DNA of 64,000 nt from an uncultured Thermoanaerobaculia bacterium (GTDB lineage: Bacteria; Acidobacteriota; Thermoanaerobaculia; Thermoanaerobaculales; Sulfomarinibacteraceae): positions 50,030 to 114,029 of the forward strand of contig CAZKGM010000003.1 in assembly GCA_964552395.1 (NCBI GenBank), in the 5' to 3' direction. Position 1 is the first letter of the stretch, and every line of letters begins with the position of its first letter. Below, in pieces: positions 6,740-56,967 of this stretch. The notes below the pieces were generated by a model. That model was not told where the DNA came from. It searched no databases and worked only from the letters and a program-made list of their open reading frames with translations. A program made the translations under genes and the position numbers.

Positions 6740-7736
6740 CGGCCTCTCCCTCTCCGGCGCGACCGTCGCTGCGGTCGCCGCCCGCCTCTCGTTCCCCCTC
6801 GGCCTTTCTCTCCTCGCCGATGGCCCGGCGCCAGTTGAACCACATCAGGCCGGCCAACCCCGCGTAGACCGCAACCGGAATAGCCCCGTACTTGAAGATG
6901 CCGTGCTGGATAGCCTCCGTGCGGCTGGGCGGCGGGGCGGTGGGAAGCGACAGCAGGCTGACCTCCTGCGGCGGCCGGCCGGTGAGGTACAACCACGACG
7001 TGCCCCCGACCTCCTCCTCGCCGTAGATGTGCGCCAGGTAGCGGTCCGGGCGCTTCGCGATCCGCTCCTTGGCCAGGAGCAGCAGATCCGCCCGCTTGCC
7101 GAACACCAGCGCCTCCGTGGGGCAGGCCGCCGCGCAGGCGGGGTTCGCGCCGGTTCCGGCCGCAACATCCGTGCACATCTCGCACTTGCGGACCCGCGGC
7201 TTCACCGGATCCCGGTACTCGTACGCGAGAATCTCGAACGGGCACGCCACCATGCAGTAGCGGCAGCCGATGCAGATCGTCGGGTTGTACACGACCGCGC
7301 CGTCCGCGGCCTTGACCATCGCGCCGACGATGCAGGCGGAGACGCACGACGGCCATAGGCAGTGCATGCACTGGAGCTTGGCGTAGGTCTGGCTCTGGTC
7401 ACTCTGGTCACGGGAGGGGGCGCCAGGAAACTGGTTCACGACCGTGAAGGCGTCCGCTGCGGGGCGCCTGAAGGTCCGGAACACGCCGCGGTCGGTGAAC
7501 GGCCGCTCCGGCCGCCGCAGTTTGTTGCGCCGGTTGCAGGCCTCCTCGCACTTGCGGCAGCCAATGCAGAGCGTGGTGTCCACCAACACGCCGACGACGT
7601 CCGGAGAGCTCTTTCGTCGGCTCGCCTTCCCGGTCTGGGCAACTGCAGGGAGAGCCGCAGCGGTCGCCGGGACCGCCCACCCTATCTCCAGCAACGCCCG
7701 TCTGCTCAGCTTCACGACGACCTCCCCGCCGGTCAT
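6729..7736 (-). CDS. HybA/HmcB-like 4x[4Fe-4S] protein with Tat signal
   Basis: SRRALL twin-arginine motif; CIGCRKCEEAC, CMHCLWPSCVSAC, CIGCRYCMVACP and KCEMC; C-terminal TM helix. Confidence 0.9.
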   Translation of the reverse strand: MTGGEVVVKLSRRALLEIGWAVPATAAALPAVAQTGKASRRKSSPDVVGVLVDTTLCIGCRKCEEACNRRNKLRRPERPFTDRGVFRTFRRPAADAFTVVNQFPGAPSRDQSDQSQTYAKLQCMHCLWPSCVSACIVGAMVKAADGAVVYNPTICIGCRYCMVACPFEILAYEYRDPVKPRVRKCEMCTDVAAGTGANPACAAACPTEALVFGKRADLLLLAKERIAKRPDRYLAHIYGEEEVGGTSWLYLTGRPPQEVSLLSLPTAPPPSRTEAIQHGIFKYGAIPVAVYAGLAGLMWFNWRRAIGEERKAEGEREAGGDRSDGRAGEGEADEA

Positions 7737-8030
7737 CCGCTCGTTCTGCGCTGTGGGTCTCTGATTTCATTCTATGGTTGTATGACGACAATAGCCATAG
7801 TCTTGGCACATTCACGGTCTCCCGGCTCATCCTGCCGGTAGCACGTCAACGACCCGGCGGGAAGGCAACGCCGCCGGTGTCAGTGCATCGCGCGGTGGAG
7901 CCACGTGGTGGTGAGCGGTGCGGGCCAACTGAATGATCCGGACCCTCGCTCTCTGCTGCGTGCGCTCCACTCCATCACGGTACTCCATGGGCTTCGTGCG
8001 AGGCACCCCACCAGCTCGGGCTCGCGAGAG

Positions 8031-9029
8031 TCACTCGAGGTTCGGGAAACGCGCGATGAGGTCCGAGACAGCTGCCATCGAACGCTCTTTGGTGAGATCT
8101 GCATCCACCTGGTAGGGAACAATCAGGACCACTTCGGAGGTGGCGGCGTCGATGACATAGAAGAGGAGCATCGCCCCTGACGAGGGCGCGAATACCGCCG
8201 GGTTGGAGATGGATGCGTACGAGGGATTCACGCCCTCGACAACGGCGCCCGCCAACATCGCCAGAACGTTGCCGACCTTCCGCCCCTTGGTCTCCGTTAC
8301 CGCTCGGCACCAGACGTACAGGAGGTACCGGCCGTCCCCGTCCTCGGGTCTCACCGCTTGCCGGACCTCGGCAAAGGCGTCAACCTCGTCGAGGAGCGGT
8401 GGGAGCGAACGGTATGCGAGCAGTCCCGGGCGGAGCTTGCGAAGGACGTCGTGCAGCGGCGCAGCGACCTGACCCCAAGCATCGAGCAGTTGCGGCGAGG
8501 CCGACCACGCGGCCTGTAGCCGTCCACCGGCGCCGGCAAGCCGCTCTGCAAGCTCCGTCCGGAGCAGCCCAGTCAGGCGTTCCGCCTCCAGTGGTGCGGG
8601 CTCGAGGTGACCCACGGCGCCCACACCGGTCTTCATCTGAAGCTCCACGTCCACCGGCATCAGGAGGTAGCGGCCCCTTCTTGCCGCCTCCTGATCGGGA
8701 GGTTCTCTGGGAACTCCAGGGATCGGCTCCAGCTCGAGATTGACCACCTCCGGCGACTGTTCGTCGAGCTTCGTCGTGGCGGGCTCGTAGCCACGCTTCT
8801 GCACCGTGACGTAGTGCGGCGTCTCCCCGAAGAACACAACCTTCGCGGTGCCCGGCGTCTCGCCGTCCGACTCGAGCAGCACCGAATCGTCGAGGCTCGG
8901 CTGCGAGTGCTCGACAATCAGCGCCCCCGCAGGCTCGGACACAACCGTGAACTGGCGACTGGTCCCACAACCCACCAGCGCCACGATCCCAGCCAAAGCC
9001 AACCAACAAACTCGTCTTTGTCGCGTCAC
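8031..9029 (-). CDS. Lipoprotein with PEGA-like N-terminal domain
   Basis: Lipobox LVGC; VSEPAGA...GETP...VQKRGY is a PEGA-like pattern; GGAGG RBS before the GTG. Confidence 0.7.
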   Translation of the reverse strand: MTRQRRVCWLALAGIVALVGCGTSRQFTVVSEPAGALIVEHSQPSLDDSVLLESDGETPGTAKVVFFGETPHYVTVQKRGYEPATTKLDEQSPEVVNLELEPIPGVPREPPDQEAARRGRYLLMPVDVELQMKTGVGAVGHLEPAPLEAERLTGLLRTELAERLAGAGGRLQAAWSASPQLLDAWGQVAAPLHDVLRKLRPGLLAYRSLPPLLDEVDAFAEVRQAVRPEDGDGRYLLYVWCRAVTETKGRKVGNVLAMLAGAVVEGVNPSYASISNPAVFAPSSGAMLLFYVIDAATSEVVLIVPYQVDADLTKERSMAAVSDLIARFPNLE

Positions 9030-9052
9030 GACACACCTCCTCCGCGATACCG

Positions 9053-9077
9053 GCGCTGCAGGCGCAGGCTGCAGCGC
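9053..9077. other. Intergenic hairpin, 9-bp perfect stem
   Basis: GCGCTGCAG-N7-CTGCAGCGC. There is no U-tract, so it is not called a terminator. Confidence 0.5.
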
Positions 9078-9092
9078 TGACCGAGCTCCTGA

Positions 9093-12000
9093 TCAGTTGC
9101 CGCCGATCCTCAGAATCTCGCCGAAGTCTCCGACGGCCCAGCACAGGTTGGAGCGCACGCAGTGCAACCCGAGAAGGCTCAGTCCCGTGGGGCTCGCCAC
9201 CGACGACCAGCTGGCGCCGCCATCCCCGGAGTGCACGATCGTGCCGCGATCTCCAACCGCCCAGCCGTTCGCCGCGGTAGGAAACGCGACATCGTGGAGA
9301 TCGCCGCTGACTCCCACGCCCCTGGCCGTCCAGGTCGTCCCGCCGTCCAGGGTGTGGAAGAACCCGCCTTCGCCGGCAATCCAGCCCTCCGAAGAGCTCG
9401 TGAAGACGACGTGCATCAGGTGCCAGGGGCAGCTGGTGTACCCACAGTCGAGCTCCTGTTGTGCCCAGCTCTTGCCGCCGTCTGCAGTGTGGATGATTGT
9501 GCCGAGCCCTCCGACCGCCCAGCCGTTCTGACTGTCCGCAAAGTGAAGCCCACCCTGAACGATGGCGAAGCCAATGGCCAGGCCGCCCTCGATTCCGGTA
9601 GGCACCCAGGCCCAGTGCGCACCCCCGTCCTCGGTCTTTGCGAGGAAGAGAGATTGTCCTCCGGAGGTGTCATCGTAATGACCCTTATCCAACGCCCAGC
9701 CGTGCTGGCCGTCGAGGAACTGGACGTCGAACAGCTCCGGTGCCAGGCCGTCCGCCAGCTCCTGACCTTGCTCCTCCCAGTGGAGGCCGCCGTCGGAGGT
9801 GTGGAGGATCGCCCCGTGAGATTTCCAGCCGGCCTCGTAGAACGTCTCCGAGCTTCCGGTCGCCCATCCGTGGAGAGCATCCACGAAGCTCACGGCGTCG
9901 AGCCGGAAGTAGCTGAACAGGTTGTCCATCGGCGGCGCCTTCTCGTACTGTTCCGCCCAGCTCGCACCGCCGTCCGAGGTGTGAAGGATGACCTGACCCC
10001 AGAGCTCCGGGGCGAAAGTCCTCCGTCCCACCGCCCAGCCGTTGTATTGATCGATGAAGAAGACGTCCTCGAGTTTGTAGTGAGCGCTGATGTACGCCTG
10101 CTTGAAGAGGTTGTCGCCGTGCGGCCAGCCATACTCCCCCCACGCGTCCTCGGATCGCACAACATAGTCATGATCTCCCACCGCGATGGCGCGGTCGCCG
10201 GTGAGGGCGAGGCCGAACAGGCCCTCGCTGTCGTGGCGCTCTTGAATGACCTTCTCCCAGGTTGTGCCACCGTCTACTGTACGGAACACCGGCGGGCCCC
10301 ATGCCGCGATGTAGTTGGCGCCCATGATGTAGGCTCGGTTGGCATCGATCGCCTCGACATCCCACAGCAGGTCGAAGAAGTGGCCAGGATCCTGCCGCTC
10401 CCAGGTCGATCCTCCGTCCGTGGTGTGGAAAGTCGCGCCGCCGATTTCTCCCGAGCTGGTCACGAATCCCACCGCCCAACCGTGTTCGACGTCGACGAAG
10501 TCAACATCCGTCAACGAGACCGGGAGATCCGGGGCATACTGCTCGGCCCACGTCGCGCCGCCGTCGGTCGTGTGGTAGACAACCATCCGGTGCTCCGGCC
10601 AGGGGTCGTCACCGACATACCGGGCCCCGACCGCCCAACCGGTCTTGGTGTCGATGAACTGCACTCCGTGCAGGATGCTGGCGCCGGCGGGCAGGCTCTG
10701 CTCGTTCCATGTCTGCCCCCCGTCGTCGGTGTGCCAGACGCTCGCCTCCCAGTTGTCCTCATCACCTACGAAGTCCCAGTGCGTCGGTCGAACGGCTGTG
10801 ATCCACCCATGCTCGTCATCGGGAAACGAGACGGCCCGCAGGCCATCTGTCGTGGCGATGGTCTGACGGGTCCAGGAGCCACCACCGTTCGAGGTGTGCA
10901 GGATGAGCCCACCCCCACCCACTGCCCAGCCGTTGTTCTGTCCGACGAAGACCACTGCGTTGAGGCCGGCAGTCTGGCCGACGGCGTGTTCACTCCAGCT
11001 CGCGCCGCCGTCATCGGTCTTGAGAAGCGTCGTCACGTACTGCTTCTCCGCCGGATCCCAGTGTGCCTCACCCACCGCCCAACCCGTAGTCGAGCTCAGC
11101 ATGTCCACGTCGCGCAGGTAGTACGAAACCTCCTCGAACTGCCTGGTCACCGTGAGCGCTCCAGCCGGCTGCAGCTCCGGCATGAAGACCGGATCTCCGG
11201 TCCGATTGTCGATGACCGAGGCGTAGGCGAAGAAGGCCCCCGCCGATGTGTTGGTGGTGAGCACGGCGTAGCCGTCCTCAACGGCGGCCGAGGTCACCGT
11301 ACGGAAGACCCGATCGAGCTGCCGGAACTCCAGCGGCCGCAAGGCCGTACGGCTGGAGGGAACTCTCCCCAGCAGGGCCCCTGAGCCGTCGTACAGATCG
11401 ACGGCAATCTGCAGTGGCGCCGCGGTGGCGTTGACGATGCCGATGTTGGTCCGGAAGCCGGTGCTCGACGCGGTGCTTTCCCGCAGCTGGATCAGGCGCA
11501 CCGCCACGCCGGCCGGGATCGCCGCCGCTGTGGCTCGGCCCGGCACGAGCTGACCATAGGTGCCGTCCGCGGTTTCGTTGTAGGTCCGACTGCTCAGCTG
11601 AAGAGGACAGCCCGACGGGGTCACCCTGAGAGCGGCTGCGCCGGAGAACGCGAACATCGACGCCAACACGTCTTTGTAGCGGACGGCCAGTCCGGGGTCG
11701 AGCTGGAAGCTCCTGGAATCCGGCAACGAGTTGTCCTGGTCCCGAGCGAGCAGCTCGATCGTGTAGGCGCACTGGGCGGGCCCAGGGTTGAGGAGCTCGA
11801 GATCCGTCCGCCAGCTCGTGCCGCCGGCACCAGTGACGTGTGCCGCGGCCGGAATCACCAGGCTGCCACCCGCAGGCGTTCGCAGGGCGGGCAGGAAAAC
11901 CGGATCGCCGGTGCGATTATCGATCACCGAGGCGTAGGCAAGAAAACGCTCCGACCCTCCCGTGAACTGTGCCTCCACCACGGCGTAGCCATCGGAAACC

Positions 12001-15509: not shown

Positions 15510-16931
15510 CTACCACCGCCCCTTTGCCGGGCGCACGCCGTACTTGTGGAGGGCGGCAACGAAGCGCGGGTACTCGCCCGGCTCGATGTTGAGGGCGGCC
15601 GCGAGCTGCTTCAGGCTGCTCCCGTTGCGGGCGTGATGGCGTTCCAGAAACAGGCGCAGCTGGCGCCGGTTGAGCTCACGATCCAGGAAGGCCCGCCACG
15701 CCGTGTCCCAGAAGCTGGCGCCCGACCCGATAGCGGCCTCCAGCTCGGACAGTACGGCCTCCGCATCCACCACTTCCACGGCTCCACGACCGATCACGGT
15801 TTCCAGCTCCCGCCCAATCTCCGAACCCTCGAGCTGGATTCCGGCGCGCTTGAGCACCTGGATCAGCTCGCGGACATTGCCCGGCCAGTCGTGGGCGAGG
15901 GCGACCTCCCAGAACCCGCTGCCCGGACGCTTCCCCCGCAAGAGGTCAAGGTGCTGCTCGACTAGGGCCTTAATGTCCTCGGGTCGTCCGCGCAGGGGAG
16001 GAATCGTGATTGGCAGCACGCCCAGCCGATAGTACAGGTCCGCCCGCAGACCGGCAGCCTCGGGTCCGGCATCGAGCGCGCGGTTGCTGGCTGCGAGGAT
16101 CCGCACATCTGCCGTCTGCTCGCGCGCCTCACCCACCCTCCGGTAGCGACGGCTGTCCACGAGCTCCAGCAGCTTGGCCTGGAACTGGCGCGGGACCTCG
16201 CTGACCTCGTCCAGCAGCAGGCTCCCGCCCTCCGCCTCCGCCACCAGACCATCCCGACCACGATCGGCACCTGTGAACGCCCCCCGGACATGTCCGAACA
16301 TCTCCCTCTCGAATAGGGTTTCCGGGATCGATGGCACGTGCACGGACACGAGACGGCCACGGCGGCCAGAGTGGCGGTGGATCAGCCCTGCAAGGTAGGT
16401 CTTGCCGACGCCGGTTTCGCCGAGCAGCAGCACCGGATCCTCCTCCAGGGCATAGCGCGCGACCAGCTCGCGCACGTGGACCATGGCCTCACTGGTGCCG
16501 GCAATGCCGGCCGGACCGTCACCGGCGCCCGCAATGGTGGCGAGAGTGTCCCCCAGCAGCTCACCGAGGGCACGGATGACTTCTCTATCCGAACGGTCGA
16601 AGGCGTCTTTGGAGCCGCTATCGACGTAAAGAAACAGGTCGCCGCCAATCGGCAGGACAAGCAGGCTCCGAATGAAGAGGGCCTGGGCCGACGCCGGCAG
16701 GGCACGCTCCTCTGCGAGATCGACTACATCCTCTCGCTCGAGGGCGGCGCCGTCCGTCAGGGTGCGACGGATGGCACTGTGCGGAAACCCGGAGCCGGTG
16801 TCGATTGTCTCGCCGCTCACCCTCCTCCCGCAGTGCCAGAGGATCCGGCCGTCCCTGCCGTACACCATCGCGAGCGACACATCCCGCCCCTCGAGCAGAT
16901 GCCACAAGCGGTTCTTGATGGCCTGAATCAT
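15510..16931 (-). CDS. sigma54-dependent transcriptional activator (bEBP) with GAF-like N-terminus
   Basis: Walker A GETGVGKT, GAFTGA, LLLDEV, ADLYYRL, WPGNVREL; C-terminal HTH-like region; no receiver domain. Confidence 0.9.
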   Translation of the reverse strand: MIQAIKNRLWHLLEGRDVSLAMVYGRDGRILWHCGRRVSGETIDTGSGFPHSAIRRTLTDGAALEREDVVDLAEERALPASAQALFIRSLLVLPIGGDLFLYVDSGSKDAFDRSDREVIRALGELLGDTLATIAGAGDGPAGIAGTSEAMVHVRELVARYALEEDPVLLLGETGVGKTYLAGLIHRHSGRRGRLVSVHVPSIPETLFEREMFGHVRGAFTGADRGRDGLVAEAEGGSLLLDEVSEVPRQFQAKLLELVDSRRYRRVGEAREQTADVRILAASNRALDAGPEAAGLRADLYYRLGVLPITIPPLRGRPEDIKALVEQHLDLLRGKRPGSGFWEVALAHDWPGNVRELIQVLKRAGIQLEGSEIGRELETVIGRGAVEVVDAEAVLSELEAAIGSGASFWDTAWRAFLDRELNRRQLRLFLERHHARNGSSLKQLAAALNIEPGEYPRFVAALHKYGVRPAKGRW

Positions 16932-42350: not shown

Positions 42351-42690
42351 CTGCAGGCTCAATGCGCTGAAGGAAAGACACTTGACCGGACAGAGCCAGC
42401 CCGCACCGCCGTTGCCGAGCGAGGCACAAACCGACCCGTAACCGTCGGGTAACAGCCTCTGCCCCCATGAGTCTGGTTCCACAGCAATCTCGATCTGTGG
42501 GCGGACTGAACCTGATCCCGCGCAAGGCGCACCAATCCCGCCAGCTGGACGCCCCACGCGAACGATGACTGGGTTGGCTGGATTCGCTCGCGATGCGCGC
42601 AGCACATCCATGGGAGCGCTTGCCGAGTAGCCCTCCCTTGGCGCTCGAGCGGTGGCTCGACGCCTCTCAGGGGCTACGCGGTGCGCGGTC

Positions 42691-45240: not shown

Positions 45241-45256
45241 AGCAAGTATCGTGCCG
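45241..45256 (-). promoter_or_regulatory. sigma54 promoter of the dsrM/K-like pair
   Basis: Reverse complement CGGCAC-GATAC-TTGCT. Confidence 0.82.
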
Positions 45257-45393
45257 TCTCAGCATCGGCACCACTCGGCGGCTGCGGCGAACCAGAGTGC
45301 ACGCAAGTGGCGCGGCACCCAGCCGTTGCCGACCGCTCGTCGCGCCTTCACGATCCAGCGCCTCGCCTGCAGACCGCCGCCGCCGGGCAAGCA

Positions 45394-45595: not shown

Positions 45596-46348
45596 CTATG
45601 AGCCCTGTATCAGGTCGTCCTTGGCATAGCGTTTCTTCACCCAGCTCGGGATGAGCGACAGCAGGACGAAGAAGATGGCTGCTATCGCCAGGTAGACAAT
45701 GGTCTTCTTCACAGCTTCCGGCTGCCCTCCGGAGAGGATCACCTCACGCGCCGAGCCGGCGGCGAAGTTGAAGGCGATGGTCGCCGGGATCATGCAGGGA
45801 AAGGTCACGAGAATGTAGGTCCGCAGCGGGATATCGGTCAGGCCGTAGACGTAGTTCTGGACATTGAACGGAAAGAGCGGCACCAGGCGGGTGATCATCA
45901 GCATCCGCCACCCCTGCTTGCGGACGCCGTCGTCGATCTTCTTGAGGGCCCGGTTCTTTTCGACCCACCCGGCGACCATGTCGCGGGCCGCGTAGCGGCC
46001 GATGAGGAAGGCCAGCACGGCCCCCAGGTTGGCGCCCACCGTGGTCCACACCGACCCCCACACCGCACCGAAGATGAGGCCGCTAACGATGGACATCGGC
46101 AGACCCGGCAGCAGCAGAACGCAGGCGATGATCCAGATCGCGATCAGCGCCGCCGGCGCCCACGGTCCCATACCGTGGAAGAACGCATCGAGCCTCAAGA
46201 CGCGGTCCTTGAGCGTCCCTCCCTTGAGCATGTCGAAGACGCCGAAGTGGTTGGCAATGAGGATCAGCGCCGCGATCGCGGCCAGCACCACTACCAGCTT
46301 GATCCAGGGCCTGCCGCCGCCGGCCTTGTCCTCGCGTTCTCCGCTCAT
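45596..46348 (-). CDS. TVP38/TMEM64 (DedA superfamily) membrane protein
   Basis: LPGLPMSIVSGLIFG, FLIGRY, RLVPLFPFNVQNYVYGLT. Confidence 0.9.
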   Translation of the reverse strand: MSGEREDKAGGGRPWIKLVVVLAAIAALILIANHFGVFDMLKGGTLKDRVLRLDAFFHGMGPWAPAALIAIWIIACVLLLPGLPMSIVSGLIFGAVWGSVWTTVGANLGAVLAFLIGRYAARDMVAGWVEKNRALKKIDDGVRKQGWRMLMITRLVPLFPFNVQNYVYGLTDIPLRTYILVTFPCMIPATIAFNFAAGSAREVILSGGQPEAVKKTIVYLAIAAIFFVLLSLIPSWVKKRYAKDDLIQGS

Positions 46349-46491
46349 GGTCTGTACTCCTTCCCAATGGTAGGCCCTCAAGCTGCGCCCGAAGGCCCAC
46401 CCGGATCACCCGCGGACGTTAGCCGGACACCGAGGAACGAAGCGGGCCGGGAATGACCCCGGCCCGCCTTCCCTCGAAATCGCGAGCCGGT

Positions 46492-47463
46492 CTACTTGCA
46501 GTCGTCGCACACGATGTTGTTCGGATAAGCCTTGTTGTAGTAGCTCCACTCGATCCACGAGCCATCGTAGTTGTGAAGATGGGAGATATCCCATCCCATG
46601 AGGTAGAGCGAGAAGATCTCGGTCGTCGTGCGGACGCCCGACTGGCAGTAGAAAATCTGGTGCTTGTTCTTGTCCATGCCGATTGCATCGATGAGCTTCT
46701 GGGTGGCGGCGGCGTCCTTCCAGGCGGTCGCCTCCCCACCCTCGGCCACCGGCTGCTTGAACGCCGGCCAGTTCTGATGCTTGGCCCACGGAATGCGGCC
46801 CTTGGCGTAGGCGCCCTTCTTGAGCTGCTCGCCGCTCCACTCCTTGCCGCCGCGCGTATCCCACAGCTGGTACTCCGGCGAGGTCTTGACCCGCCAGATC
46901 TCCGACAGCCCGACGGTCCACCCGGGCAGCTCATCGGCTGCGACAAAGGTCCCCTCCTTGGCCGGCCTGGCCGGCAGGTGATCGACATCGTAGCCGGCCG
47001 CCTTCCACGCCTGGAAGCCGCCGTCGAGGACCCGGCAGTCCGTCTTGCCGTACAGGTAGAACATCCACCATACCCGTGTCGAGTCGTACTTGTGATCGTA
47101 GATGACGACCTTCGAGTCGTTGTCGATCCCGAGCTCGCGTGCGAACGCCTGGAAGGCGTCGCGGTCGAGGGCCATCCCCTCGTACGGGAACTCCACGCCT
47201 TCCTTGGGCTCGTAGTCGCCCCGCCAGATGTGCAGTGCACCCGGGACATGGCCAAGGCCGTAGTCGGTGAGCTTGGCAACCGCCAGGACCACCAGCTTGG
47301 GGTCCTTGGCATCCATCATCGACTTCAGCTCCTGGGCCGTGATCAAGGCTTGACCGCGCTCGAAACCCTTGTAGTTGTCTCCCGCGAGGAGCGGCGCCGC
47401 GGCACCTATGACGAGGGCCAGGATCACGACGATCGGCCACCTGCAGAATCGTTGCTGGGACAT
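46492..47463 (-). CDS. Exported tandem-domain rhodanese/sulfurtransferase
   Basis: Sec signal peptide, GHVPGA, VLDGG, DTRG..E, GRIPWA, active-site FYCQSGVRT, YDGSWIEW. Confidence 0.92.
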   Translation of the reverse strand: MSQQRFCRWPIVVILALVIGAAAPLLAGDNYKGFERGQALITAQELKSMMDAKDPKLVVLAVAKLTDYGLGHVPGALHIWRGDYEPKEGVEFPYEGMALDRDAFQAFARELGIDNDSKVVIYDHKYDSTRVWWMFYLYGKTDCRVLDGGFQAWKAAGYDVDHLPARPAKEGTFVAADELPGWTVGLSEIWRVKTSPEYQLWDTRGGKEWSGEQLKKGAYAKGRIPWAKHQNWPAFKQPVAEGGEATAWKDAAATQKLIDAIGMDKNKHQIFYCQSGVRTTTEIFSLYLMGWDISHLHNYDGSWIEWSYYNKAYPNNIVCDDCK

Positions 47464-47517
47464 GTCTCTCCTCCTTTGCATTCACGTTCAGACAGCCACT
47501 ACGGCCGGAACATCTAG

Positions 47518-47533
47518 TGCAAGCTGCGTTCCA
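47518..47533 (-). promoter_or_regulatory. sigma54 promoter of rhodanese-TVP38
   Basis: Reverse complement TGGAAC-GCAGC-TTGCA; AT-rich tract at about 47540-47572. Confidence 0.8.
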
Positions 47534-47587: not shown

Positions 47588-49045
47588 CTATTCCGAGGCC
47601 GTGCCCGCAGGTGCCGTGTGGGGCCGGTAACCGTCTTCGTTACCCTGCTGTAACAGCCGCCTCGCCTCGGGTGGAGTGTAGTGGAGGGGGAGCTCGACGG
47701 CAAAGGTGCTGCCCGCCCCCTCCTCACTGCTGACGGCCACACCACCGCCGTGCGCCTCGAAGACCTCTCGCACAATCGCGAGACCGAGCCCCGTCCCCTC
47801 CGGCGCGTGACGCTTTGCGTTCGGCGCGCGAACGAACTCGAGCAGGACTTGATCGCGGAACGCCGCCGGAATTCCGATGCCGCGATCGAGCACCTGAACC
47901 GTCACGGCGGTGTCGTTGACGCGCAGGCGAACCGTCACGGCGCCTCCCCGATACGAGTACTTGATTGCGTTTTGGACCAGGTTCTCGAAGGCATGGACCA
48001 GATCGGGGGGAATCCCCCAGTCGAGGATGGCCACACCGTCGAAGTCCGGGACCAGCTCGATATTCCGCTCCGCGGCCAGCGGCTCCAAGGCATCCATGAT
48101 GTCGGCCAACAGCTGGTTGACGTTGATAGCCCGGCTCCACGGGGCCCGACCCCGGCCCTCCCGAATCTTGGCCAGCTCGAGCAGGTCGTTGACGATCGCC
48201 AGCAGGCCGTCGACCCGCTCGATCGCACCGGCGAGCAGGCGGCGCCCGCGTTCGGAGGCAGGGTCGACGTAGCCCTTCGCCAGCACAGACAGCGTCGTCT
48301 GGACGGTTCCCAACGGCGACCGGAGCTGGTGGGCCGAGATCCGCATGTAGTGCGACTTGCGTTGCTCGAGCTCGGCGATCTCATCGAGCAGGCACTGCAG
48401 CTCGGTCGTGCGCTCCTGCAGCTTGCCGGTGGTCCTGTAGAGCTCGATGTTGCGCTTCTTGAAGCGGCTGGTCACCGAGTCCGTGAGGTAGACGATGCCG
48501 AAGAGGGCGACCGTGAGAGCCACGAGGTTGAGGTCACAGGCACGGCCGCACATGCCGCGAGTAGGATCGACGGGATGGACGGCGAGTAGCCCCTTGCCCT
48601 CCGCCATGTACAGCCCGAGAAGACCGACAGACGTTGCTGCGGCCAGGACATACATGATTCGGGTCGCGATCATGATGGTCCCGATCGCCATGTGAAATGC
48701 GAACACCGGGAGCAACGGGCTCTGCAAGCCTCCGCTGAAGTGAACGGTCACGACCAGCGACAGGAGGTCCATGACCATCTGCCGGATGGCGCAGCTGCGG
48801 AGGTTCCCGTAAGGTTGGCCGTGCTCCTCCGCAATGCGAAACACATTGAAGAAGATCAAGTTGTAGGCGGCCACGAAGAGGGCCACCAGGAACAGGCTCG
48901 GCCATACCGACTGCATGCCGATGCGCGGGCCCACAAGCGACGCCGCCACCAGCCCCGCGACCGCCAGCCAGCGGAGCTTGATGAACCACTGCAGACGTTC
49001 CCGTAGCTCCGGGGCGAAGATGAAGGCGAACCGGGACTCGGCCAA
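47588..49045 (-). CDS. Membrane sensor histidine kinase
   Basis: About 6 N-terminal TM; H-box SAHQLRSPL; NLVQNAIKY, DRGIG, GTGLGL, GAGSTF. Confidence 0.92.
   Translation of the reverse strand: MAESRFAFIFAPELRERLQWFIKLRWLAVAGLVAASLVGPRIGMQSVWPSLFLVALFVAAYNLIFFNVFRIAEEHGQPYGNLRSCAIRQMVMDLLSLVVTVHFSGGLQSPLLPVFAFHMAIGTIMIATRIMYVLAAATSVGLLGLYMAEGKGLLAVHPVDPTRGMCGRACDLNLVALTVALFGIVYLTDSVTSRFKKRNIELYRTTGKLQERTTELQCLLDEIAELEQRKSHYMRISAHQLRSPLGTVQTTLSVLAKGYVDPASERGRRLLAGAIERVDGLLAIVNDLLELAKIREGRGRAPWSRAINVNQLLADIMDALEPLAAERNIELVPDFDGVAILDWGIPPDLVHAFENLVQNAIKYSYRGGAVTVRLRVNDTAVTVQVLDRGIGIPAAFRDQVLLEFVRAPNAKRHAPEGTGLGLAIVREVFEAHGGGVAVSSEEGAGSTFAVELPLHYTPPEARRLLQQGNEDGYRPHTAPAGTASE
47639..47654. promoter_or_regulatory. 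Palindrome GTTAC-N6-GTAAC (candidate enhancer site 3, inside the 3' end of the kinase gene)
   Basis: GTTAC-CCTGCT-GTAAC, 106 bp upstream of the -24 element. Confidence 0.72.
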
Positions 49046-54485: not shown

Positions 54486-56612
54486 TCACTCGACCCCCAG
54501 CGGTCGCAGTCTCTTGAACGCCCACTTCGTCCGCAACCGGTTCCCGTAGCGGGCGATGCTCCCCGGCGGTTTGGCGGACGCCTTCGACCTCCAGTCCTTC
54601 TCGAACAGGAAGTCCAGAATGTGGATCGCCGGCTTGCCGGTGCCGGCGATCGCCATCCGACAGCCGGCGCAGTAGGTCACCTGAGGCAGCGCGGACTCCG
54701 CCGCCCGCCGCCGGCTCACGGCCTGCGAGAGCTCCGGATCCACCGGGTAGATCATGCCTCCGAAGCCGCAGCAGCGGGCCAGCTCACCGTTGTACTCGAT
54801 GTCGTCGACCCCGCCGCCGCCCGCCTCGATCAGAGTACGGACCGCTTGGTGAAGATCCGGCTCGTGGCGCGCCTTGCACGAGTCGTGGACCGAGACGACT
54901 TCTCCCTCCCGTCTCCGCGGCGGCTCCCACCTCCCGGCCAGCAGCTCCCACACCGTCGTCACCGCGAGCTCGGGAAAGCTCTCCTTCAAGGTATGGGCGC
55001 AGTCGGGGCAGGCGGCGACCAGCTCTTCCGCACCGACCTTCTCGGCCGCCTCCAGGATCCCTCGCCGCGTCTGTTCAAACTCCTCCTCCATCCCGAGCAG
55101 CTCCACCGGCGCGCCGCAGCAGTACATGAGAACGCCCGTTCCGGGGTAGCTCCGCCGCAGCTCGTCATACATGGTGATCGTGTGGCGCGGCGCGACCGCC
55201 GGCAGGGCGCAGCCGGTGAAGAACAGCCGCTTCGCCCGTCTCCTGCCCGGCTCGGCCATTGCCAGCGTGAACATCGAGCCGACTCCGGCCTTCCAGTAGC
55301 TCACGATCCCCTTGTGCACGGGCAGCGGGCCGACACCCTCCTCGACCGCTCGGCGCCGCGCCTCAATCAGTAGCCGCCCGGTGTCGAGGTCCTCCGGGCA
55401 CACTGCGGCGCACAGGGAACAGACGTTACAGGAGTACGCCATCTTCACCGTCTCGGGCACCTCGAGACCGGCCATGATGCGTCGTGCGATGTCCTTCGGC
55501 GAGCTGCAGTACTTGGCGAGGAATTCGCAGTCCTTGACGCACAGACCACACTCGCAATCAAGGCACCGGGCGGCTTCCTCGAGGGCCTCCTCCTCAGTCA
55601 GCGGCGGGTTGGCAGGGACCAGCATCATCGGGGTCCGCTCGCGCCTCTTGCGCTCCTCCTCGGTGACCTCCAACGTCCACAGCAGGCGATCCGGTAGCAG
55701 CTGCTCGCGATCGGCCCTGAGGTCTCGGCCGCTCAGAAAGCGGTCCACAGACTCCGCCGCCCGGCGCCCCAGCGCCAGCGAGTAGATCACCGTCGCGGGC
55801 CCGCTGACGGCGTCGCCGCCGGCGAAAACACCCGCCATTGGGGTCTCACAGGTCAGGGGGTCCACAGCCAGGAGCCCACGCGGGGTGGTGCCTTCGGCGC
55901 CCCGGCGCATCATCACGCACGCCCCGGCAAAACCCACCAGCAGCAGCACCGCGGCATAGTCACGGCGCAGCTCATCGAGGGTGATGTCGCGCCCGACCTC
56001 GACCCCGGTGCGCACCTCGATGCCGAGCGCGGCGACGACCGACAGGTCGCGCTCCACGACGCTTCTCGGCAGGCGCCAGGCCGGGATCTTGGCAACCAGG
56101 CAGCCGCCGATCTCCTGCTCTCGCTCGAAGACCGTGACCCCGAACCCCTTCCTGCGCAGGTCATACGCTGCCAGCAGGCCCGCCGGGCCGGCGCCCACGA
56201 CCGCCACCCGCTGCCCACGGTCCGGCTCGCAGTCGATCACGTGCTGCGGCTCCCCCGTCTCCCACTCGGCCAGGAACCTCTTGATATCGCGGACACGGAC
56301 CGCTTCGTCCTCGTCAATCCGCTTGCAGTGCAGCTCGCACGGATGGGCGCAGACATACCCCAGAACCCCGGGAAACGGCAGGCGCTCCCGCACCAGCTGC
56401 AGGGCCTCGCGGAACCGACCCTCACGGGTCAGCTGGACGTAGCCCCGAGCATCCACGTGCAGCGGGCAACGTCCGACGCAGTTGGCGGGCCCCTCGCCGC
56501 GACACCGCTCGAGCAGATCGCTCGCCAGCCACTCCAGGCTCCCGACATCGTGCCTGGTACCACCGACAACCCCGAGGGCCGATCCTTCCAGACGGTCCGC
56601 TGGTTCTGCCAT
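54486..56612 (-). CDS. GltD-like FAD/FeS oxidoreductase fused to 2x[4Fe-4S] and two CCG domains
   Basis: CVGRCP and GYVCAHPCE, VGAGPAG, FAGGD, CLDCECGLCVKDC, CNVCSLCAAVCP, FTGC/CCG/CPDC and HDSC/CCGFGG/YCAGC. Confidence 0.88.
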   Translation of the reverse strand: MAEPADRLEGSALGVVGGTRHDVGSLEWLASDLLERCRGEGPANCVGRCPLHVDARGYVQLTREGRFREALQLVRERLPFPGVLGYVCAHPCELHCKRIDEDEAVRVRDIKRFLAEWETGEPQHVIDCEPDRGQRVAVVGAGPAGLLAAYDLRRKGFGVTVFEREQEIGGCLVAKIPAWRLPRSVVERDLSVVAALGIEVRTGVEVGRDITLDELRRDYAAVLLLVGFAGACVMMRRGAEGTTPRGLLAVDPLTCETPMAGVFAGGDAVSGPATVIYSLALGRRAAESVDRFLSGRDLRADREQLLPDRLLWTLEVTEEERKRRERTPMMLVPANPPLTEEEALEEAARCLDCECGLCVKDCEFLAKYCSSPKDIARRIMAGLEVPETVKMAYSCNVCSLCAAVCPEDLDTGRLLIEARRRAVEEGVGPLPVHKGIVSYWKAGVGSMFTLAMAEPGRRRAKRLFFTGCALPAVAPRHTITMYDELRRSYPGTGVLMYCCGAPVELLGMEEEFEQTRRGILEAAEKVGAEELVAACPDCAHTLKESFPELAVTTVWELLAGRWEPPRRREGEVVSVHDSCKARHEPDLHQAVRTLIEAGGGGVDDIEYNGELARCCGFGGMIYPVDPELSQAVSRRRAAESALPQVTYCAGCRMAIAGTGKPAIHILDFLFEKDWRSKASAKPPGSIARYGNRLRTKWAFKRLRPLGVE

Positions 56613-56709
56613 ACGCTACCTCCGCCTTGCCGCCGGCCGGAGATCGCTCGCCCACGACCCTCGGCGGGCCTCACGCGCCTCTCCGAACCGTTCCGATCCT
56701 CGCCGACCG

Positions 56710-56967
56710 TCACCGATTCGTAACATCATCGGCCACCCGTTCGAAACGTGCGGGTCGGAGCTCGAACTCTCTGCAGGCCACCTCCGGATCCTGAAAGGTG
56801 TTCCGCACCGCGCAGATGCCCGCGCGCCCGCGCGTCGAGCCATAGGACGACGACAGCACGAGGATGCCGGGGAAGCTCCTCTCGAGAGCCGCCGGATCGT
56901 CCTGGAAGTACCTGCACTCAGCACAGGTTCGGCTCTCCTCGACAGCTGAAGGGTGATCTCTGATCAT
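56710..56967 (-). CDS. Small 4-Cys protein (C-X2-C-X33-C-X12-C-X2-F)
   Basis: 85 aa ORF directly after a sigma54 motif, on the same strand as the cluster. Confidence 0.65.
   Translation of the reverse strand: MIRDHPSAVEESRTCAECRYFQDDPAALERSFPGILVLSSSYGSTRGRAGICAVRNTFQDPEVACREFELRPARFERVADDVTNR

Follow-up and report, generated by a model that had tools for sequence, protein, structure and literature searches.

A 64,000-nucleotide stretch of DNA from an uncultured Thermoanaerobaculia bacterium (here called the window) encodes, side by side on its minus strand, an exported tandem-domain rhodanese and a membrane protein of the DedA superfamily. Both genes are real: that for the rhodanese spans 46492–47463 (323 amino acids (aa) plus stop), its identity drawn from Pfam, alignment, AlphaFold and Foldseek, and that for the YdjX/TVP38-type (COG0398) DedA protein spans 45596–46348 (250 aa plus stop). 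The linkage of these two proteins with an Hdr-like reductase encoded upstream points to an undescribed transmembrane sulfur-handling route. A partnership of the exported rhodanese, the YdjX-type DedA protein and the Hdr-like reductase is in our judgement highly probable. We put at about 0.55 the probability that the three, often together with YeiH, form a conserved accessory module in dissimilatory sulfur metabolism, in which the rhodanese would capture sulfur outside, DedA would provide the membrane link and the CCG reductase would act inside the cell. An earlier note on this DNA had proposed that the rhodanese is exported and tied to DedA, and had read the pair as periplasmic sulfane-sulfur transfer linked to a membrane carrier, forming an entry step for thiosulfate or polysulfide. 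The export and the tie to DedA stand; the carrier and entry-step roles go beyond what the sequence shows, as substrate, direction and transport activity are unreadable from it. That note did not contain the cytoplasmic NAD(P)H/FAD/iron–sulfur (FeS)/CCG reductase, nor YeiH, which also recurs.

The functional tie between rhodanese and DedA is supported because the two genes are conserved as neighbours, are linked again across phyla in a different order, and are naturally fused. In the window the pair is preceded on the same strand by genes for an FAD/FeS/CCG protein (54486–56612), NuoG-, NuoE- and NuoF-like proteins, a receiver domain and a histidine kinase with six transmembrane (TM) helices, and is followed by DsrM-like, DsrK-like, YeiH and DsrA genes, with aprA and sat on the same contig. 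The order NuoF, receiver domain, kinase, rhodanese, DedA was found in about 20 acidobacterial loci in a scan of one genome per species, with rhodanese identities down to 55% and DedA identities down to about 50%; the nearest loci are from Thermoanaerobaculia metagenome-assembled genomes (MAGs). Four Desulfobacterales loci (L014, L016, L017 and L212) show a reordered arrangement, in which DedA is followed by an 840-aa protein of Fer4_20/Pyr_redox_2/Fer4_17/CCG architecture, then by the rhodanese and then by YeiH, the 840-aa protein being 39–45% identical to the FAD-CCG protein of the window. One further Desulfobacterales rhodanese locus (L019/L213) is without a DedA gene. The rhodanese heads an operon of FAD-CCG, NuoG, NuoE and NuoF genes in a Fibrobacteraceae MAG (L032), where DedA-like and YeiH genes are divergent, and it is itself divergent from the FAD-CCG operon in an Eisenbacteria MAG (L021). 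The Hdr-like CCG reductase is the most consistent cross-phylum partner.

The Desulfobacterales loci have features of their own. The L014 reductase is in two pieces, with a 375-aa Fer4/CCG protein encoded after DedA and a separate FAD part upstream, and at this locus the DedA/CCG/rhodanese operon is adjoined by a gene for a 1008-aa fusion of radical SAM, methyltransferase and DUF5714 domains (7142–10168, minus strand). The genomes bearing the operon (G301–G303 and G315, those of L014, L016, L017 and L212) are small, at about 1.7–2.2 Mb.

A search for longer relatives of the window DedA recovered proteins in which it is fused either to a rhodanese or to the reductase. Ten proteins of 548–562 aa consist of a signal peptide, a tandem rhodanese, one TM helix, a lysine-rich loop and DedA, and come from Spirochaetes wherever the source names the organism. 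Their rhodanese part is 33% identical to that of the window and their DedA part 40–47%, and they share the YxxxxR, CQSGVRS and YDGSW-EWSY motifs with the window rhodanese. In six proteins of about 1090 aa, DedA (47–51% identity) is joined to an FAD/FeS/CCG reductase (36–49% identity to the window protein), the single named source being Thermodesulfobacteriota; three further CCG-DedA fusion proteins were found, two of them from Geomonas. The DedA-reductase fusion occurs in both domain orders, and both termini of DedA are therefore predicted to be cytoplasmic. Taken together, the fusions fix the predicted topology, with the rhodanese outside, both DedA termini inside and the reductase inside. 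A metagenome scan with one DedA-reductase fusion (P0241) returned generic GltD/DsrL-like loci, among which 1 of 80 had a weak rhodanese match and none of the 80 a DedA match.

We next consider the rhodanese itself. Pfam places two PF00581 stretches in the protein (E 1.8e-23), and its closest solved structures are the Thermus thermophilus and bovine rhodaneses and the mercaptopyruvate sulfurtransferases (MSTs), at E values of about 1e-20 and 24–28% identity. The AlphaFold model, for which 23 homologues were used, has a predicted local distance difference test score (pLDDT) of 86, and in Foldseek comparisons it reaches TM-scores of 0.81–0.85 to structures of MSTs and thiosulfate sulfurtransferases (TSTs) (4JGT, 1ORB and 1UAR). 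The CQSGVR active-site loop named in the earlier note is indeed present at residues 273–278 (46630–46647, minus strand), where it aligns with the CRKGVT loop of the bovine enzyme; C273, Q274, V277 and R278 of this loop, together with T280, are invariant in the 23 aligned homologues. In the same alignment D123, which occupies the place of the cysteine in the inactive N-domain, is invariant, and so is R204, which lines up with Arg186, the residue that binds thiosulfate in the bovine enzyme. With a catalytic cysteine on a six-residue loop of the C-domain and an inactive N-domain, the protein is assigned from its sequence to the tandem TST/MST class. It falls in neither of two named families, because both scores are under the NCBIfam cut-offs. 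For SseA (NF008557) it scores 78.5 bits against a cut-off of 250, and its loop reads CQSGVRT rather than CG[ST]GVTA; ExtH (NF040901) is the best NCBIfam match, at 79.2 bits against 200, with the N-domain only, and the lipobox is absent from all 114 homologues.

The rhodanese ends in a C318-D-D-C321 motif (46501–46512, minus strand). This CxxC tail is modelled with low confidence (pLDDT 48–61), and the model therefore suggests that it is flexible. Of 120 rhodanese homologues 20 have it, and of the 28 loci examined 14 do. In each of these 14 the rhodanese adjoins module genes (FAD-CCG, NuoF or histidine kinase), and a DedA gene is found as well in 13, L019 having none nearby; the tail occurs in two phyla, always in rhodaneses that adjoin module genes. 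A paralogous exported tandem rhodanese (contig C27:24327–25202; locus L002 1354–2460) is 49% identical and has the same CQSGVR loop. It has long insertions, no CxxC tail and no DedA neighbour, and lies between TPR-like and radical SAM genes.

Export of the rhodanese was scored with a rule-based test for Sec (SPase I) signal peptides that calls for a positive n-region, a hydrophobic h-region and small residues at −1/−3, with no Tat motif or lipobox. The N-terminus carries two arginines and a hydrophobic core of 18 residues, and small residues form a site 2–4 residues before an invariant YKGF; the window protein passes the test, as do 106 of the 114 homologues. The predicted signal peptide covers approximately residues 1–28 (47380–47463, minus strand), with probable cleavage after LLA or LAG, and AlphaFold models this segment as a single helix at residues 10–21 with pLDDT below 50. 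Lipoprotein and Tat export were ruled out on motifs, as no lipobox was found in any of the 114 homologues and an RR-like motif in 6. The rule-based call is reinforced because the fusions put the rhodanese on the opposite side of the membrane from the lysine-rich cytoplasmic loop. These results support the Sec-type signal peptide and the export that had been read from the window before, as predictions that extend to most of the family.

The gene downstream of the rhodanese, which had likewise been called DedA-family, scores 95.5 bits to the PF09335 VTT domain against a gathering score of 33.9. Its product is 34% identical to Escherichia coli YdjX (E 1.6e-32) and 28% to YdjZ, which places it in COG0398 by comparison with these two proteins; its close homologues carry the JGI/NCBI name YdjX/TVP38-TMEM64. 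It does not belong with the UptA-type undecaprenyl-phosphate flippases (NF052604), whose model it matches at only 19.6 bits, the cut-off being 250. A cysteine just before the LPG-x-P motif, Cys76 (codon 46121–46123, minus strand), is specific to the subfamily: all 22 of the rhodanese-adjacent DedA genes from Acidobacteriota and Desulfobacterales encode it, and the position is alanine or threonine in all of the approximately 28 generic paralogues aligned (a set that includes L111 from the unpublished genome G049, the statement holding without it) and threonine in YdjX. In a maximum-likelihood tree the window DedA clade (support 98/97) is sister to the rhodanese-fused clade (87/86), and the DedA proteins of the Desulfobacterales operons group with the reductase-fused forms (84/91). 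The window, rhodanese-fused and reductase-fused clades stand apart from the generic acidobacterial TVP38 paralogues, with deeper nodes unresolved.

How the three proteins might work together can be set out as follows. Cys273 of the periplasmic rhodanese would take a persulfide from an anionic donor, for example thiosulfate or polysulfide. The YdjX-type DedA, with both ends in the cytoplasm, would serve as the membrane link for sulfur, and the cytoplasmic CCG reductase (54486–56612), with its NuoE/F/G-like partners, would process sulfur or disulfide species with NAD(P)H; YeiH may carry a sulfite moiety towards DsrAB. We favour inward movement followed by reduction, and infer the substrate, the direction and the passage of sulfur through or along DedA. 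A more specific proposal, which we advance only tentatively, is that a YdjX-type DedA subfamily, distinguished by a membrane-embedded cysteine ahead of the re-entrant LPG-x-P motif, bridges the membrane in a sulfur system of three compartments, in which the rhodanese would hand sulfane sulfur, a persulfide or a thiol carrier to DedA, and thence to the cytoplasmic NAD(P)H-driven CCG reductase. If true, this would give COG0398 DedA proteins their first non-lipid substrate, and extracytoplasmic sulfur a route to cytoplasmic Dsr/Hdr-type enzymes.

Several observations weigh against a module of this kind. The CxxC tail is missing in about half of the DedA-linked rhodanese orthologues, and Cys76 in some fused forms (P0250 and P0259) and in the Fibrobacteraceae neighbour; the sister relation between the window DedA and the rhodanese-fused clade has only moderate support. 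For many rhodanese orthologues (those of Scalindua, Binatia, Cyanobium and others), neither a DedA nor a CCG gene lies within 6 kb, and the DedA proteins that have been characterised translocate lipids, namely undecaprenyl phosphate and phospholipids (PMC10127716). The module is also rare. Among 301 sampled Acidobacteriota genomes, 35 have a dsrA orthologue and 3 a DedA relative of more than 45% identity, and the rhodanese is found in only 2 of the 35 that are dsrA-positive; it is found in 6 of 151 sampled Desulfobacterales genomes. Two dsr-positive genomes from the same family as the window (G143 and G165) have no rhodanese, no DedA orthologue and no orthologous kinase. The pair is therefore dispensable for Dsr function and is no universal dsr accessory: it is an accessory module that travels with the Hdr-like/kinase module, and not with dsr as such.

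The same set of proteins could also operate in the outward direction. The CxxC-tailed rhodanese would then be a periplasmic thiol-dependent thiosulfate/polysulfide reductase, supplied by a thiol/disulfide carrier or by reducing equivalents that cross via DedA and are regenerated by the CCG reductase with NAD(P)H, while sulfite enters via YeiH for DsrAB. Such a shuttle would suit the CCG domains, which are disulfide-reducing modules and are fused to the DedA subfamily of the window, as well as the restriction of the flexible tail to rhodaneses with adjoining module genes in two phyla, the conservation of the membrane-embedded Cys76, the co-occurrence of YeiH and a weak match to the NCBIfam family TsoB, a rhodanese/DsbD-like fusion. 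However, DedA has one conserved cysteine, whereas relays of the DsbD/CcdA type use a pair, and the tail is not general among the DedA-linked orthologues; we consider an outward shuttle unlikely. We give less credence still to the idea that the module acts on selenium or tellurium oxyanions, or on another chalcogen or metalloid, rather than on sulfur. The best NCBIfam match of the rhodanese is to ExtH of selenite/tellurite operons, and a Ralstonia DedA protein is tied to selenite resistance according to a report cited in a passage of PMC10127716, but 79 bits falls far short of the ExtH cut-off of 200, the protein lacks a lipobox, and the unit lies inside a dsr cluster whose dsrMK-like and yeiH-dsrAB genes have the same layout of operator and sigma54 promoter; no selenium-utilisation genes were seen beside the unit in the window.

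It is also conceivable that DedA simply scrambles or flips lipids, or is a mere anchor, that the rhodanese is independent of it and serves, for example, detoxification or thiosulfate assimilation, and that their linkage reflects envelope adaptation. This would agree with known DedA biochemistry (PMC10127716) and with the DedA-less rhodanese orthologues, which adjoin unrelated transporters (MFS at L035 and L039; CitMHS/Na-sulfate-symporter type at L041). It would leave unexplained the independent fusions to rhodanese and reductase, the cross-phylum linkage that persists despite reshuffling and the subfamily signature, and it sits poorly with the UptA equivalog score given above, so that we rate it as improbable. 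The kinase gene directly precedes the rhodanese gene in every acidobacterial locus and its product has no obvious periplasmic sensor domain, which raises the question of whether the exported rhodanese could be a periplasmic co-sensor for the six-TM kinase and not a metabolic enzyme. The catalytic loop is nevertheless invariant, and Desulfobacterales, Fibrobacteraceae and Eisenbacteria keep the rhodanese-reductase(-DedA) linkage without the kinase, making a co-sensor role very improbable indeed.

No description of the rhodanese-DedA unit was found in the searchable literature, and papers on acidobacterial dsr clusters leave both genes undiscussed (PMC8528874, PMC10591310, PMC10504309). Tandem TST/MST enzymes (1RHD, 1UAR, 4JGT and SseA 1URH) have the two-domain fold in common with the window rhodanese, together with the inactive N-domain with its aspartate, the cysteine loop of the C-domain and the anion-binding arginine. 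They differ in that their loop reads CRKGVT or CG[ST]GVT, at 24–28% overall identity, and in that they are cytoplasmic or mitochondrial, whereas the window rhodanese is predicted to be Sec-exported and part of its family is CxxC-tailed. In E. coli the ydjX-ydjY-ydjZ-ynjABCD-ynjE locus likewise has two COG0398 DedA genes, ydjX and ydjZ, clustered and co-oriented with the gene for an exported rhodanese, YnjE, to which the window rhodanese is 26% identical (E 1.6e-11). YnjE has three domains, however, and YdjX has threonine at the Cys76 position; an ABC transporter, YdjY and an AhpD-like protein replace the Hdr-like reductase and YeiH, and there is no dsr context.

Among other exported rhodaneses, Sud of Wolinella and the periplasmic enzyme of Aquifex are single-domain proteins, and ExtH of Geobacter is a lipoprotein, as is also reflected in its NCBIfam naming. 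These three, and the Desulfobulbaceae 'pRho', are proposed to supply or mobilise sulfane sulfur (PMC13047784, PMC6378623), and none has been described with a DedA or Hdr-like partner; the Desulfobulbaceae export rhodaneses that are highly expressed, again with no DedA partner described (PMC13047784). DedA fusions have been reported before. Todor et al. (2023; PMC10127716) list fusions of DedA to rhodanese for COG0586 and to oxidoreductases for COG0398, a connection that they regard as unclear, and a DedA fusion is also noted in Pseudomonas aeruginosa PA1209 (PMC12893004). According to these reports, DedA-family domains recur with domains of rhodanese and of pyridine-nucleotide disulfide oxidoreductase. 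Rhodanese fusions published so far belong to COG0586 and have the rhodanese at the C-terminus, whereas those described here are YdjX-like and have either an N-terminal signal peptide and tandem rhodanese or an Hdr-like FAD/FeS/CCG part. A conceptual analogue is provided by YeeE/YedE(TsuA)-YeeD(TsuB) and the YTD cluster, in which a membrane protein and a sulfurtransferase import sulfur from thiosulfate for dissimilatory or assimilatory use (PMC8528874, PMC13047784). The protein families are unrelated, and the TusA-like sulfurtransferase is cytoplasmic in that system, whereas the rhodanese here is predicted to be periplasmic.

The linkage bears on the role of bacterial COG0398 DedA proteins, in a superfamily whose known substrates are lipids only (PMC10127716), and on how extracytoplasmic sulfur gets to the cytoplasmic Dsr/Hdr enzymes of sulfur reducers, oxidisers and disproportionators. 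A module whose predicted topology is fixed by fusions offers a concrete set of proteins for expression and assay, and in uncultured members of the Acidobacteriota and Desulfobacterales it could act as a marker for the use of thiosulfate or sulfur.

Turning to expression of the pair, the rhodanese ATG at 47463 is preceded at a distance of 6 nt by the ribosome-binding site AAGGAGG (47470–47476, minus strand). An alternative ATG at 47481 overlaps this AAGGAGG and is not itself preceded by a ribosome-binding site. The promoter that the earlier note had assigned to the rhodanese gene is the predicted sigma54 −24/−12 element TGGAACGCAGCTTGCA at 47518–47533 (minus strand), just beyond the interval 45596–47463 with which that note was concerned and the sole exact match to TGGNACG-N4-TTGCW in the window. 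It has the GG-N10-GC spacing and a TTGC −12 box, and a corresponding TGG[AT]A[CT]-N6-TGCA element is kept 38–94 bp before the start codon of the orthologous rhodanese in 14–16 acidobacterial loci; the genome encodes one rpoN and 22 sigma54 activators. As for the palindrome that had also been noted, two candidates exist. One is GTTAC-N6-GTAAC at 47639–47654, situated within the 3′-terminal part of the histidine-kinase gene and separated by about 105 bp from the −24 element downstream of it; it is a candidate upstream activator site at which a sigma54 enhancer-binding protein would bind. Five matches to this motif with up to one mismatch occur in the window, against 0.19 expected, and 16 orthologous loci have a copy ahead of the rhodanese, 94–145 bp upstream of its sigma54 element. 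The sigma54 promoters that come next, those before the dsrMK-like genes and before yeiH-dsrAB, are likewise preceded by copies, so that palindrome and sigma54 layout are common to all three units.

The rhodanese and DedA genes are 143 bp apart, and the other candidate, a GC-rich hairpin at 46442–46467 (minus strand) with a 10-bp stem and a 6-nt loop, lies in this spacer. Its local fold is −34.5 kcal/mol and it has no T-run; a canonical intrinsic terminator was rejected, as the terminator scan did not call one either. Comparably strong hairpins of different sequence (−25 to −41 kcal/mol) are present in 17 of 17 orthologous spacers examined, and because every one of these spacers has such a structure, it is probably an element of intercistronic stability or attenuation. 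Since the sigma54 element lies upstream and no promoter or operator motif was found in the spacer, we infer that the rhodanese and DedA genes form one sigma54-dependent transcription unit with an intercistronic hairpin.

One-mismatch copies of the palindrome are also found at 42438–42453, the second one upstream of yeiH, and at 56709–56724, in the interval that separates the FAD-CCG start from the proposed promoter. A gene for a sigma54 enhancer-binding protein lies at 15510–16931 (minus strand; PF00158 match G000:C3:66037–66534), about 30 kb from the sulfur cluster. Because the cluster itself encodes no DNA-binding regulator, its product is a candidate activator for the GTTAC-N6-GTAAC sites.

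Some minor observations concern other loci and gene calls. Of the DedA-less orthologues, those of Binatia and a deltaproteobacterial MAG precede an MFS transporter, and that of a Cyanobium MAG (L041 4087–5904), at 42% identity, comes after a transporter of the CitMHS/Na-sulfate-symporter type that bears TrkA-C domains; the exported rhodanese family repeatedly adjoins anion transporters. At L043, L044 and L039 the rhodanese matches two adjacent frames, as do NuoF and DedA at L043, and these apparent frameshifts are possibly assembly indels rather than signs of pseudogenes. In the window, the longest DsrM-like open reading frame (GTG at 45302) spans a sigma54-like element at 45241–45256, and an ATG at about 45197 is therefore the more likely start.

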